This document shows, piece by piece, positions 21,239 through 57,966 of a stretch of 64,000 nucleotides of DNA. The first letter of the stretch is position 1. Every line of letters begins with the position of its first letter. The notes under the pieces are model-generated. The model made no database searches. It was not told where the DNA came from and saw only the letters and a program-made list of their open reading frames with translations. Source of the DNA: Octopus vulgaris (lineage: Eukaryota); the NCBI GenBank assembly GCA_951406725.2, contig OX597819.1, positions 61,814,001 to 61,878,000 of the forward strand. Reading direction: 5' to 3'. Both the position numbers and the translations under genes were made by a program.

Positions 21239-24200
21239 ATCTATATATATATATATAAGAGAGAGAGAGATGTATAGTTGTGAGTTTAAAGCTCCATGTA
21301 GAATATCATCATCTAGTTTACATCCAGTATAACAGTGTGGTTACTATTGTAGTTAGTAGTATTACTGATTATGATATACAGAGCAACATCCACAATGGTG
21401 AAGTATACATTAGGAACAAAGGATATAAACTGCATCTTGTATTTATCATACTTTCCGTGCTGTGCGCACAGGTGTGTGTGATCTGCTATACTCTTTTACC
21501 ATATTATCTTTGTATGATCCAAACATTATCTTATGGGGTTGTTGGTATTTAGCTCCTGTTCAGCCCTAATTGAGCAAACCTATGATCAAAGATATTCCGC
21601 TCGTGGCCATGCTATTGGTGTTTTTTTGTAATATCTGCGACTACATTATATGCATGTGTATGTATGTATATATTGAATGTGATAGTCGGAATCTAGAACT
21701 GTATCAGTTTTATAAGTCACACCACTACAACCTCCCATTCATTAATTGTTAGCTGAAGCGAAATTTCATTTGCAAACTGGATTTGAACTTGCTTTATCCT
21801 ATTCTGACATTTTACTGTCAAAAGCTCCTGACATCCTACAGCTAATACTTATATCATTATCCATTTCCTCCCTCTCAGTTAATCACTCTGCCTTCTCTTT
21901 GCTTTTTTCCCTTGCATCCTTATCGTCCTCATTCATTACATCCAGTTTTGTTGTTGTGGTTGTTATTTTATTTTATTTATTTTTTTTTTTTTACTATAGA
22001 TGTCTGTTGCAGCCTTTCCTCTCTTGTTTGTATGTAGGGCAGGGGTGATGGCTTATGTCTTTTTAATGAAGTCCTCTTGGTTAGGGTCTAAATTATATTA
22101 CATAGAAAATGTAGAAAGCGAAAAATAAATTACAGTATGGAATGAAATAATTTGTTGCAATTATGAGTCATACAAGTTTTATCAGAACAACTGTAATTAC
22201 TGAGGAAATCATAAACTTATGGGGTTTTTTTTTTAATCTTTTATCTTATTGTCCAACTAATTGAACTATGCAGTCTGTACATGGCCCCCTTGCTTCTGAT
22301 TGCATCAAGTTGCTTTGGGTGGGGGCAGCATATTTTACGCAGCAAGTTTACCTACTGCAGGAGTATTAATTTGTTTATTTGTCCTGTTTTATGAAAGTGA
22401 ACTTTCATAAAAGTGTATATATTTTGACCGCTTTTATGCACAAGACACACATATAGAGAGAGATTGATAGATATAAATATTTTTGACAGGCTTCTTTCAC
22501 TTTCTTTCCATGTACCAAATAAATTCAGAAAGCTTTGGCCAGCCCAGGGCTTTAGTTGAAGATACTTGCCCAAGGTGCCATGCAGTGGGATTGAACCCAT
22601 GGTTGGGAACCAAGCTTCTGGTCTTTTTCAACAACTTGAACAAGCATTTTCTACTAAAACCACAGATCATCCAAAACCATGTGAATGAATTTGGAAACTG
22701 AAAGAAGCCTGTCATGTGTGTGTGTGTGTGTGTGTGTAACTTTGTCTAGACATCACATGATGGCTGTAAATGAGCATCACCATCATACAAGTGAGGTTAT
22801 TAGTTTCTAGTCTTCCGTGGAAAGCCTGTCTAGCCATGGAAGAATATTGCCTTGCCTGGAAACAGATGAGGGTTGGTGACAGGAAGGGCATCTGATTGTA
22901 GAAATTCTGTCTCAACAAATTCAGACTGACCCATGCAAGCATGAAAAAGAGGACATTAAAACGATGAGGATGATACATAAATACATACATATGTACCACT
23001 GTTAAATTCAAAACATCTTAATTGACAATCCTGATCATAGAAATAGTTAATAAGCCCTAGTCAGTATTTTAGCACAACTTATTTAATGTCCATTGTCCAT
23101 TCTGGCATGGGCTGAACAGCTTGACTGGGCTGGCATGCTGGAAGGCTGTGCCAGGCTCCAGTCTGATTTAGTATGGTTTTCTATGGCTGGATGTCCTTCC
23201 TAACGCCAAACCACCTCGAGGGTGTAATAGGTGCTTTTATGTGCCACTGGCATGGGTGCCATTTGCATGACACTGGTATCTGCCATGACTGTGTTTTTGC
23301 TCGGCTTGATGGGTTTTCTTCTCAAGCATGACATAATATTGCAGGTCTTGGTCATTGCCTCCATGGGGTCCAACACTTGAAAGTAACTCAGCCACTTTGC
23401 TTGCATGAGGCAAATTACTGACCCCTAGCCAAACAAATCACTAACATTGTTTCAGATTTTGGCACAAGGCCAGTAACTTTAGGTAGGGGATTAGTCATTT
23501 ACATTGGCACCAGTCTTGGTACTTATTTTATCAAAGCTTGAAAGCCAAGTTGACCTCAGCAGTATTTGAACTTGGTATGTAAAGAACTGGAAGAAAAATT
23601 TGTGCTGCTAGCATTTTATCTGATATGCTAATAAATCTGCCAGCTCACTGCCTTACTAATGGTAGGAATAATTGTTTCTAATTCTGGTATAGGGGCCAAC
23701 AATTTTGAGGGGAGGGTATAGCCAATTATATTAAACTGGGTACTTCATTGGTTCTCTATTTTATTCTTTATTGAACCCTACAAGGGTGAAAGACAAAGGT
23801 GACCTCGGCAGTATTTGAACTCAGGATGCAAAGAGCAGGAAGAAATGCATGCTGCCGATCGTATTTGTCTGATGTGCTAATGATTCTACCAGTTTATAGC
23901 AATACAACGTTAAGATTTCTGTTTATTTTTGTTATTTCCGTTGCAACCGCAGACTGCATACACTCTGTGTAACTGTAATGCTATCAAAAATTACATGATT
24001 TGAGCTAACCTTCTAGTAAATCAATAATACATTGTATGATATAAAATATAAGCACCATTAAAAAAAAAGCATCATATTGTTACAGGGTTATAGACACAAA
24101 AGCTAAAGTTTTTTTGATAAGCAATTCTCAGTCATTTATATTAAGTAGATTGAATACAATATTTTGCTTTAATGCACACGTTTGAAACAACATAAATCTA

Positions 24201-25752: not shown

Positions 25753-26795
25753 TGCAGGTGTAGCTGTATGGTAAGAAGCTTGCTTCCCAACCACATGCTT
25801 CTGGGTTCAGTCCCATTGCATGGCACATTGGACAAGCGTCTTCCACTATAGCCTCAGGCCAACCAAAGCCTTGTCAGTGGATTTGGTAGATGGAAACTGA
25901 AAGAAGCCCATCATATATATGTGTGCATGCATTTCTGTGTCTGTGTTTGTCGCCCTACCATCGCTTGACAACCGATGTTGGCGAGTTTATGTTCCCCGTA
26001 ACTTAGCAGTTCAGCAAAAGAGACCAATAGAATAAGTACTAGGCTTACAAAGAATATAAGGTAAACTTATGCTGCATATATGGGTACAGGACATCACAAA
26101 ATGTAAACAACATGAAATACAAAGGCAAACCTGGCTATGTGAACAACAAGAGAAACAAATGGAAAACAAGACAAGTAACATAAAGAACAACCCTTCATCA
26201 GTTGTTGGCTGTTTATATACACCACATTTTGAGCAATTAACGACAATATGAGGCTTCAAAAAACAGTTGCTCCTGTGAACCAAAATAAAATTTGGGATTT
26301 GCAGAGGTTCAAAGTTGGTAACAAAAACAGGACAGTGGAGACATACAACAAACCAAATGAAAACAAACATGGAGGGCCGTTAGACCAGACAATGTAAGGT
26401 AGCAAGGAATATTCTTTGACAAGAGAAAAAATAGGAGACATAAGAATGCGTCTGGTCTGTGCGACAGACTGAAGGAAAAGAAAAATGATCACGTGAGGAA
26501 AAGACGTTTTCAACTGGTTTGTTGTATGTCTCCACTGTCCTGTTTTTGTTACCAACTTTGACCCTCCGCAAAATCCCAAATTTTATTTTGATTCGCAGGA
26601 GCAACTATTTTTTGAAGCCTCATATTGTCATTAATTGCTCAAAATGTGGAGTAGATAAACAGCCGACAGCTGATGAAGGGTCGTTTCTTATGTTACTTGT
26701 CTTGTTTTCCATTTGTTTCTCTCGTTCACATACCCATGTTTGCCTTCGGTGCATCAGCATGGCTGCAGTTCTGAGCTGAAACTACAGAAAAGATA
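25753..26795 (+). mobile_element. SINE family A split by an insertion of about 690 bp
   Basis: The SINE body runs to ...CAAAGAATATAAG (about 26060) and its tail CAGCATGGCTGCAG...CTGAAAC resumes near 26750. Confidence 0.8.
26122..26746. repeat. long inverted repeat, arms about 240 bp, loop about 140 bp
   Basis: 26122-26364 is the reverse complement of 26506-26746; mirrored ORFs 26011..26370(-) and 26519..26779(+) share peptides such as PNFILxxRSNxFLKPHIV. Confidence 0.95.
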
Positions 26796-33799: not shown

Positions 33800-33970
<171 letters not shown>

Positions 33971-40441: not shown

Positions 40442-40785
40442 AAGGCGGCGAGCTGGCAGAAATGTTAGCATACTGGGTAAAATGCTTTGCAGTATTTCAT
40501 TTGTCTTTACATTCTGAGTTCAAATTCCACTGAGGTCGACTTTGCCTTTCATCCTTTCAGGGTCGATAAATTTAGTACCAGTTACGTACTAGGATCAATC
40601 TAATCGACTGACCCCTCCTCAAAAATTTTGGGCCTTTTGCCTAGAGTAGAAAATATTATTAAGGCAGTGAGCAGGCAGAAACGTTAGCACACTGGGCGAA
40701 ATGCTTAGCAGTATTTCATCTGTCTTTACTGTCTGAGCCCCACCGTCCCCAAAAAAATTTCAGGCCTTGTGCCTACTGTAGAAAA
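40442..40785 (+). mobile_element. two tandem family B SINE-like copies, the second internally deleted
   Basis: AAGGCGGCGAGCTGGCAGAA at 40442 and AAGGCAGTGAGCAGGCAGAA at 40661; both end with GCCT...GTAGAAAA. Confidence 0.85.
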
Positions 40786-41243: not shown

Positions 41244-42274
41244 TAAGATTGAATGAATGTGGTGATATCTGAGGTATGTTTGTCCCAAACAACTCTTATT
41301 TTAGTGCTGTTGACACTGCCAGATTGAATGGTACTGCCCAGGTGTCGAAACCATAGTGATATCCATGGGGAAGCTGATGATAGAGGTATGTTGGATTGTT
41401 GGTACGGCTGTTATTATATATGCAGAATAGTTTTATAACACATCCATTTGGTGTGTGTGTATGTATGTATGTGTGTATATATATATATATATTGCTATTA
41501 TGTTAAACTGTCGTATGTCCAAATTTGGCCAGATGCTCTTTTTTTATCTTTTTTTTTCCAAAATTCATATTTGCTTGCAAAGCTGGTTCTTTTAATCAAA
41601 CCATCATATCTCCAGCTGCTTCAGATGCCAAGACATCAAAATTTGTAAAAGTGTATGTAGTATATTTTCTCGTTTTCTGAAAAAGCAATGTTTTGGACTT
41701 ATGACACCTTTGCATAATAGCAACGGTATATATATGTAGATACTTGAAAGTATATGAAATATATACATCATTTTAATGATGTTAGTCCTTCTTTCACATT
41801 TTAGTAACCAGTTTATTCTTCCTGTAATAGTTTATTTTGCTTATACTATAGTTGTTAATATGACCTTTAGCCTTCATGACCAGTTTTTGTTATAATTCTG
41901 ATCAATTTACCAAGACAGAAGCATGTATATTTAAGTGTATATCATTCAGTTTTTTTTTTCTTTCTTTTTTTTTTTTGGCAGAATCTTTAGCATGCTGGAC
42001 AGATGCTTAGTAGCATTTCTTCCGGCTTTTTACATTCCTAGTTCAAATGTTGACGAGGTTAATTTGCCTTTCATCATTGCAGGGTCAAGCACTGCAATTG
42101 GTGTGATTGACTGCCAAAAAAAAAAAAAAAAAGGGTTTATTTTAAGACAGAATTTCATTTTAATACTTTGAACCAGAAACTCTTTATACCATTGTTATCC
42201 ACTTGTGTGGGTTTTTTTTATTGTTATAAATTGTTTTATAAATATTGCATAAATGTATATTTGTCATATTACAG

Positions 42275-42353
42275 CTGGAAGGATGGTCTGGCATTCTGTG
42301 CCCTGATCCACAGACATCGTCCAGAACTGCTGGATTATTACAAACTCACCAGG
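42275..42353 (+). CDS. Actn: alpha-actinin CH2 exon, variant A of a mutually exclusive pair (79 nt, phase 2 to 0)
   Basis: attacAG acceptor, GTaaat donor. (S)[26 protein letters not shown]; also visible inside track ORF 42168..42401. Confidence 0.96.
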
Positions 42354-42927
42354 GTAAATCAATCTAAAAGAGTTCTCTGCCAGTTATCACTGTTGAGCTG
42401 ATAACAATAAACTCCGTTTTGTCACCCTCACGTTGTCCAACTTGTTGCCACCCATCTATATTTGTTGTCTGACCAGTGCTTTACTTATGCTGCTCACACA
42501 AACACTATCTAACTGAGCAAGTTTTGGCAGTTTATAGAATTAAAAAAATGATAATTAAGAGAAATAAAAAGATATTTATTTTCTCTATACTTTTTTAACT
42601 TCTATCATTCTTCTTTCTCAGATTTTTATCTCAGTCTGACATATCACTGGCAAGAAACGCCAGAAGTGAAATGAAATTTCACTTGTTTTGTTGTTTACTT
42701 ACACATATAGAGAAAATAATATATCAAGTTTTCCTTGAAGAAGAAAAAAAAACTGCCAGAACTTGCTTCTTTTGGTGACGGTGCTAAATCCTTACTACCT
42801 GACACTCTCTTTTTTTATTTCTTCTCTATCTGTTTAATATCTGGTGTCTGTCTGTTCAGGAATGCTAACTCTCCGTTGAGCAACTCATCAAAATGCATGT
42901 ATTGTATGTTTCTTTGTCTTTCTACAG

Positions 42928-43006
42928 CTTTAAAGATGGTTTGGCCTTCTGTGCACTGATTCATCGGCACCGGCCAGATTTAATTGATTACCACAAACTG
43001 TCCAAG
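42928..43006 (+). CDS. Actn: alpha-actinin CH2 exon, variant B of a mutually exclusive pair (79 nt, phase 2 to 0)
   Basis: tttctacAG acceptor, GTgagt donor. (S)[26 protein letters not shown]; same length and phase as variant A. Confidence 0.96.
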
Positions 43007-48329: not shown

Positions 48330-48486
48330 ATTCACCATCACTAGGAGCACCAGCATTGCTAGAAATAGGAGTCATAGACTCCTTAGCATAGAGATCATGT
48401 GCTTTTTGTGGCTAAGGATTCTACAACTCCTATTTTTAGCAATGCTGGTGCTCACTGCACCCTTGTCACTCTTAGTGATGTTGAAT
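48330..48486. repeat. fold-back hairpin of about 155 nt
   Basis: 48345-48387 pairs with 48411-48453 (39 of 43 Watson-Crick); outer stem 48330-48344 pairs with 48471-48486. Confidence 0.92.
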
Positions 48487-54748: not shown

Positions 54749-54830
54749 GACAATCCACTGGAGAATTTGAACACAGCCTTCGATGTTGCTGAGAAATACT
54801 TGGATATCCCCAGGATGTTGGATGCTGAAG
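54749..54830 (+). CDS. Actn: alpha-actinin coding exon, CH2 (82 nt, phase 0 to 1)
   Basis: aaatctAG acceptor, GTaatt donor. [27 protein letters not shown]. Confidence 0.98.
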
Positions 54831-57536: not shown

Positions 57537-57966
57537 AGGCACAAGGCCTGAAACCTTGGGGGAGGGGGCTAGTCGATTACATTGACTCCAGTGCATAACT
57601 GGTACTTATTTCATCGACCCCCCCCCCCCCCTAAGGATGAAAAAAAAGTTGACCTTGATGGAATTTGAACTCAGAGCGTAAAGACGAACAAAATACCACT
57701 AAGCATTTTGAATAGTAATAATAATAATAATAATAATTATAATAATAATAGCAATGATAATCATGATAAATGCAAGCTGGCACAATTGTTAGCATGCTGG
57801 GCAAAATATTTAGCCGCATTTCATCTGTCTTTATGTTCTGAGTTCAAATTCTACCTTGGTCTGCTTTGCTTTTCTTCTCTTCAGGGTCGATAAAATAATA
57901 CCAGTTGAATACTAAGGTCAATGCAATCGACCTATCCCCTGCCCTGCAATTACTGGTCTTGTGCCA
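57537..57966. mobile_element. head-to-head pair of family B SINE-like copies separated by (AAT)n
   Basis: GAATTTGAACTCAGAGCGTAAAGAC (minus copy) pairs with GTCTTTATGTTCTGAGTTCAAATTC (plus copy); GGCACAAGGCC pairs with GGTCTTGTGCC. Confidence 0.8.

Follow-up and report, generated by a model that had tools for sequence, protein, structure and literature searches.

The Octopus vulgaris locus analyzed here raises the question of how one of two tandem alpha-actinin exons comes to be used at a time, and whether a long duplex predicted in the intron between them takes part in that choice. The preliminary description of the sequence had proposed a structure-based switch in which one arm of the duplex pairs either with its intronic partner or with a site inside exon A. 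Our analysis of the window (the whole 64-kb stretch of DNA) leads to a different reading, which we prefer tentatively and at somewhat less than even confidence: exon choice would be of the Rbfox type and backed by nonsense-mediated decay (NMD), and the stem would be an auxiliary, non-competing bridge. The coordinates of the features are collected in Table 1.

Motif and tblastn scans showed that the plus strand of the window carries the 5' half of an Octopus alpha-actinin gene, with coding exons starting at approximately 3703, 29714, 33882, 42275, 42928, 54749, 58936, and 60485. The exon at about 3703 matches Octopus vulgaris/sinensis alpha-actinin with 100% identity and that of O. bimaculoides with 99%, and the 79-nt exon is the only alpha-actinin exon doubled in the window. 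Splicing with A only gives a 142-residue product that is an exact substring of the annotated proteins P0005, P0006, P0012, P0129, and P0131, and splicing with B only gives a 142-residue product that is an exact substring of P0010, P0130, and P0132. Scallops, oysters, abalones, and mussels have the same W..R and F..K alternatives among their annotated isoforms, and there, as in Octopus, isoforms X1 and X2 each carry one exon or the other. Since the single-exon products match annotated proteins and the same alternatives recur across molluscs, the A/B pair, presented in the preliminary description as two alternative exons, consists of homologous alternatives and is real, old, and already annotated. 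Two bivalve gene models, P0014 and P0160, join both exons or parts of them into one protein; the tandem arrangement probably misled the annotation in both cases.

Table 1. Features of the alpha-actinin exon pair and its intron, in positions of the window.
Feature	Position	Strand	Basis or remark
Constitutive alpha-actinin exon 5' of the pair, start of second calponin-homology domain	33882..33969	+	Bounded by AG/GT; translates, when spliced, to an exact stretch of annotated Octopus alpha-actinins
Alternative exon A, 79 nt (3n+1), peptide W...R	42275..42353	+	Isoform X1 form, Octopus records P0006, P0012
Proposed competitor inside exon A, 11 bp, one bulge, chance-level	42321..42331	+	-14.1 kcal/mol, pair probability 0.000
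Outer stem, 5' side, weak	42420..42426	+	Pair probability at most 0.105
Duplex, 5' arm	42515..42533	+	Pairing, shuffles, folding
AT-rich 216-nt loop closed by the duplex, several predicted hairpins	42534..42749	+	z -3.19, 1/200 shuffles as good
Duplex, 3' arm	42750..42768	+	Pairing, shuffles, folding
Outer stem, 3' side, weak	42774..42780	+	Pairing, folding
Candidate exon-B branch-point-like pentamers CTGAC 42799, CTAAC 42865, CTCAT 42884	42799..42888	+	Pattern scan
TGCATG, Rbfox-type element	42894..42899	+	34 nt 5' of exon B acceptor; GCATG similarly placed in distant paired loci
Alternative exon B, 79 nt, peptide F...K	42928..43006	+	Isoform X2 form, Octopus P0010, P0130, Argonauta P0132
Constitutive exon 3' of the pair	54749..54830	+	Scans and spliced translation

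Tandem substitution of actinin exons is not confined to this pair. Lek et al. reportedly described actinin exon duplications in 2010, and the A/B pair may be described there. We take the octopus 79-nt pair to lie two exons 5' of the exon that is duplicated in vertebrates and arthropods; the latter is single in the octopus window and doubled in several other loci, and the exon two positions 3' of the pair, single in the window, is doubled or tripled in loci L006, L009, L011, L029, and L033 of the metagenome set introduced below. Exon duplications of actinin have been noted in vertebrates, arthropods, and nematodes (PMC9741552, PMC8373072), and the actin-binding-domain pair of ACTN2/ACTN4, shared with Drosophila, the EF-hand pair of ACTN1/4, and exons 4a/4b of C. 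elegans atn-1 likewise represent tandem exon substitution (PMC8373072, PMC9741552, PMC4165533). A literature search for a PIP2-binding stretch beside the 79-nt exon gave no match.

Both kinds of splicing error at this pair would shift the frame. When A is joined to B, a TAA at 42931-42933 comes into frame as the second codon of B, 75 nt 5' of the next junction, and skipping both exons also leads to an early stop. The A+B stop was also found in all five other distinct loci with a W/F pair. The features of NMD-backed exclusive exons are thus present, namely two exons of 79 nt each and stops in both the double-inclusion and the double-skipping products. Because both products stop early, NMD could clear such errors. 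In C. elegans, NMD backs 14 of 19 clusters whose exons are not a multiple of three in length (PMC4165533).

For the choice between A and B, the intron just 5' of exon B offers a candidate signal, the (U)GCAUG element placed immediately before the putatively repressed exon. Rbfox proteins acting at (U)GCAUG repress an exon from upstream sites and activate it from downstream ones, and in calcitonin/CGRP a UGCAUG at -34 blocks branch-point binding, with exon 5B of egl-15 repressed likewise (PMC2777236). The likeness to calcitonin/CGRP exon 4 is close, since the octopus element also lies at -34 beside a branch-point-like sequence, 6 nt after CTCAT. The egl-15 5A/5B pair also has UGCAUG just 5' of an acceptor; it differs in that repression falls on the upstream exon and SUP-12 binds together with the Rbfox protein, whereas the octopus Rbfox site is a predicted one.

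A degenerate pattern for the 79-nt exon plus donor retrieved 114 metagenome loci. A W-then-F pair with its whole intron was present in five distinct loci (L008, L013, L015, L017, and L063; introns of 222-1890 nt), and one further contig carried an F..R/F..K pair (L083/L084). The flanking exons resemble mollusc records in L017 and worm-like records in L008 and L063, and no paired metagenome locus looks coleoid by sequence. A pattern specific to exon A found 0 metagenome loci, and the general exon pattern found 0 in prokaryote genome contigs.

Of 7 close pairs, 6 have GCATG no more than 50 nt before the acceptor of the second exon, compared with 2 of the 31 single-copy exons that were verified (Fisher p 7e-5), a comparison in which the 50-nt window was picked after data inspection, the loci are not phylogenetically independent, and 5 of the 31 controls have no upstream intron. 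The motif lies at -33 in the octopus window, -13 in L008, -30 in L013, -11 in L015, -42 in L017, and -32 in L063, and only at -100 in L084. It was absent before exon-A acceptors (0/6) and before the other acceptors of the octopus gene (0/7). The count left out near-identical duplicates (L016, L053, L085/86, L093, L109/110, and others), five rows in which the upstream sequence was short or non-AG, 42 rows of 'unknown' status (2 with GCATG), and L078, a divergent pair with GCATG at exactly -50 in its second copy. The common GCATG before exon B is a sturdier result than the stem, and the motif is the better candidate for controlling exon choice.

We therefore read the unit as Rbfox-type choice combined with NMD, given the precedents for repression through upstream UGCAUG and the stops in the A+B and skipping products. 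A and B would be old duplicated alpha-actinin exons of which one is used at a time, most likely selected by an Rbfox-family protein acting on the UGCAUG just 5' of exon B. When the protein is present, the branch point or acceptor of B would be blocked, and the site, lying downstream of A, would favor A; when it is absent, exon B would be used. Transcripts with both exons or neither would be frameshifted and removed by NMD. The shared GCATG predicts one ancient Rbfox switch between muscle or neural and other alpha-actinin isoforms in molluscs and related animals.

Several other observations were made in these loci. In L013 and L017, a second TGCATG lies within 12 nt after exon B, overlapping the end of the donor region. 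In L008, the exon preceding A/B is also tandemly doubled (4223-4140 and 3720-3640 on the minus strand), and its second copy has GCATG at about -110; it is a candidate second exclusive pair in the same gene. Many worm-like loci, among them L004, L018, L019, and L022, have a single F..K copy between both neighbor exons and no GCATG before it, which suggests either that exon A and the motif were lost or that the duplication came later than these lineages.

The second part of the question concerns the duplex. The preliminary description was accurate in its account of the pairing, which is uninterrupted over 19 bp (17 Watson-Crick and 2 G-U pairs), and of the arms as non-repetitive, since they have no second copy at ≤3 mismatches and no blastn match elsewhere in the 64-kb window. 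The predicted energy of the duplex is -28.8 kcal/mol, compared with a mean of -11.7 and a top value of -20.1 kcal/mol for the best helices when the 574-nt intron was dinucleotide-shuffled 300 times; no shuffle equalled it (0/300) and none held a 19-bp helix. Its mean pair probability is 0.97, with values of 0.97-0.98 in all eight folds that contain the 3' arm. The two G-U pairs belong to the sense-strand helix, which is more stable than the antisense one (-28.8 vs -24.4 kcal/mol). Both arms are inside the A-B intron, 161 nt from exon A and 160 nt from exon B; no exon lies within the loop, and no splice site is covered by the duplex. A search of Rfam gave no match in the intron and one sub-threshold match outside it. 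The open reading frame over the 3' arm led to no candidate read-through or spurious frame carrying the intron, and a search with the exon-B frame gave 99 hits, none with octopus-like flanks.

The duplex is thus beyond chance when compared with shuffled sequence and less special when compared with real introns. Among 110 other 574-nt tiles of the window, 5 hold a stronger helix, three of these being TA microsatellite, and a sliding scan found three other non-microsatellite helices of ≤ -28.8 kcal/mol within 574 nt, two of them without other copies in the window. Of 68 other actinin introns measuring 200-2000 nt, taken from other animals, 7 contain a helix at z ≤ -4 (-27.7 to -39 kcal/mol); in the 400-800 nt subset the figure is 4 of 33. 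Because these introns and three further sites in the window hold equally strong helices, it is nearly as likely that the duplex is a neutral inverted repeat, such as a small foldback or MITE-like relic or a template-switch product, and that Rbfox-type choice with NMD operates without the stem. The AT-rich, hairpin-rich interior is consistent with this origin. Some observations argue against it: no second copy exists in 64 kb, the mismatches can be read as G-U pairs only on the sense strand, the octopus genome holds no more than about 3 comparable helices per 64 kb, and no target-site duplication was evident by eye in the flanks of the arms, where one could have decayed.

The distant paired introns bear on both readings. 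Too diverged to align, the five introns share with the octopus arms only one 11-mer, in L015, and in L008, L063, and L015 no helix exceeds the shuffles. Judged from these loci, a strong stem is not required for the A/B pair, since these three have the pair without such a helix, which favors neutrality and counts against a bridge. Perfect helices of 16 bp, unrelated to the octopus stem, are present in L017 and L013, the two longest of the paired introns (z -3.3 and -2.5, respectively; shuffles as good, 0/30 for L017, and 0/12 and 1/15 in two runs for L013), and these count against neutrality.

If the stem has a function, our preferred reading, Rbfox-type choice with an auxiliary bridge, assigns it the following one. 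It would be a single non-competing stem that forms once the 3' arm is transcribed, and its likeliest job would be to fold away about 250 nt. The TGCATG lies 126 nt beyond the 3' arm, and the predicted duplex would cut its distance to the A donor from 540 to 287 nt. The arrangement would fit a bridge: one stable stem without a competitor, in an intron between duplicated exclusive exons, with the TGCATG beyond the distal arm brought nearer the regulated exon A. However, a distance of about 290 nt is still long for bridging. The stem may also bury a cryptic acceptor. The whole stem-loop domain is predicted to be more structured than its shuffles (z -6.79, 0/200 shuffles as structured), and among cryptic acceptors in the intron the top-scoring one lies in its loop, with an AG that ends at 42621; it scores 9.6 vs 10.3 for the acceptor of A and 11.6 for that of B; about 0.6 acceptors scoring ≥8 are expected per 574 nt. 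Acting in these ways, the stem would tune the A:B ratio and would not enforce exclusion. A second acceptor-like site lies outside the loop at 42799-42860 (CTGAC, a pyrimidine tract, and TTCAG), 67 nt 5' of the exon B acceptor, with a score of 8.0; its use would shift the frame.

Among the closest known systems is FGFR2 IIIb/IIIc, in which, as in octopus, a non-competing intronic stem (IAS2-ISAR) accompanies duplicated exclusive exons. That stem lies inside the intron between IIIb and IIIc, and a 2003 paper by Baraniak is said to be the one on approximation in FGFR2. In FGFR2, UGCAUG upstream of the downstream exon represses that exon through Fox-2 (PMC2777236), and double inclusion or skipping is subject to NMD (PMC12772994). 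In FGFR2 the arms have been tested by mutation and their conservation extends from sea urchin to human, whereas the octopus stem is predicted and the gene and sequences are unrelated. In SCN9A 5a/5b, ISRE1-ISRE2 likewise form a single stem (-17 to -24 kcal/mol) with an Rbfox2 site, and the bridge shifts the ratio of the duplicated exon pair without enforcing exclusion (PMC12772994); that stem lies 3' of the second exon, by its donor, and the octopus stem lies between the exons.

A fuller scenario, which we regard as doubtful, is that the exon pair, which belongs to the second calponin-homology domain, is older than molluscs, that the UGCAUG has been kept for >500 million years, that octopus added a 254-nt multi-hairpin domain whose 19-bp stem bridges the site to A and hides the cryptic acceptor, and that unrelated stems arose convergently in other long A-B introns. 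If the bridge and the ancient UGCAUG both hold true, this would be a rare instance of structure-assisted exclusive splicing outside arthropods, nematodes, and vertebrates; none was found for a cephalopod or other mollusc in a search of mostly open-access literature. A functional stem would offer a compact (<1 kb), easily cloned test of an RNA bridge in a lophotrochozoan, a group in which this search found no case. A-to-I editing is abundant in coleoids, and it could report or even tune such a helix.

The switch that had been proposed, similar to those of Dscam1 and ATE1, fared worse. It holds that the 5' arm pairs either with exon A, so that A is masked and B is used, or with the 3' arm, so that A is freed, and we consider it improbable. 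The exon-A partner exists as described, with 11 pairs and one bulge, is transcribed before the 3' arm, and is bound by the 5' arm better than exon B is (-14.1 vs -10.3 kcal/mol). Its strength, however, is at chance level: among 2000 synonymous recodings of exon A, 28% do as well, as do 16 of 258 tiles of 79 nt from introns, and five sites within 1 kb, the true partner included, match or beat it for the 5' arm. A constitutive exon of the same gene pairs with this arm at -19.3 kcal/mol, beating exon A. The exon-A pairing, about 15 kcal/mol weaker than the duplex, was never populated, with a probability of 0.000 in 16 of 16 folds at 37 and 20 °C, eight of which ended before the 3' arm. Forcing it cost 10.6-28 kcal/mol (10.6-12.1 in transcripts ending before the 3' arm). 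Proteins or kinetics outside the folding models could stabilize it. The competitor starts 46 nt inside exon A and covers neither splice site of A, unlike in ATE1 (PMC7797038).

The outer stem that had been described as compatible with the main duplex is present (6 Watson-Crick pairs and 1 G-U pair), but its pair probability is only 0.000-0.105. No second strong partner for either arm was found in 33968-54748 (21 kb), the next best being gapped and far, at -19.9 and -19.7 kcal/mol. Since the competitor and the outer stem fail and no second strong partner turned up in these 21 kb, neither Dscam-type docking/selector pairing nor ATE1-type masking is present. The octopus locus resembles Dscam1/14-3-3zeta/Mhc and human ATE1 R1-R3-R4 in having duplicated exclusive exons with nearby intronic complementarity (PMC6071210, PMC7797038). 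The Dscam-type arrangement is one of docking and selector sites (PMC6071210, PMC4691838), and in ATE1 competing helices hide 3' splice sites (PMC7797038). In the Dscam type, each exon has its own selector, the docking site is located outside the cluster, and an alternative exon is looped out by the pairing. By comparison, octopus has no two comparable partners (-28.8 vs -14.1 kcal/mol), no looped-out exon, and no covered splice site; the 3' arm ends 160 nt before the B acceptor and the exon-A site is internal. Of the two outcomes envisaged for the switch, compaction of the A-B intron survives as a prediction of about 250 nt, and masking of exon A does not. The finding fails as a novel type of competing switch.

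An inverted pair at 41961-42131, TTTTGGCAG/CTGCCAAAA, was considered as a further partner and dropped because it flanks a repeat with other copies in the window. The repeat copy itself (41976-42088), 190 nt 5' of exon A, is flanked by poly(T)GGCAG/CTGCCpoly(A) inverted ends and matches 1793-1905, 23775-23848, 40454-40564, 57778-57888, and other places.

Branch points follow the consensus yUnAy, and the steric limit on the distance from donor to branch point is roughly 50-60 nt. From the A donor to the candidate pentamers, the distance is 448-514 nt in the linear intron, 195-261 nt with the duplex, and 88-154 nt with the outer stem added. It is very improbable that the duplex and outer stem exclude A-B splicing by bringing the A donor too near a distant B branch point, CTGAC, which is followed by a pyrimidine tract and begins 19 nt past the outer stem: the two stems would indeed cut the distance from 448 to 88 nt, but this exceeds the limit, the outer stem is hardly populated, the main duplex alone leaves 195 nt, and two AGs (42858 and 42879) lie between CTGAC and the exon B acceptor.

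Two other structures in the window, neither with another copy there, were recorded. A foldback element at 26190-26681 contains five nested perfect helices of 15-27 bp, and the intron 3' of exon B contains a 28-bp hairpin at 48345-48453, with a 53-nt loop and a predicted energy of -49.7 kcal/mol.
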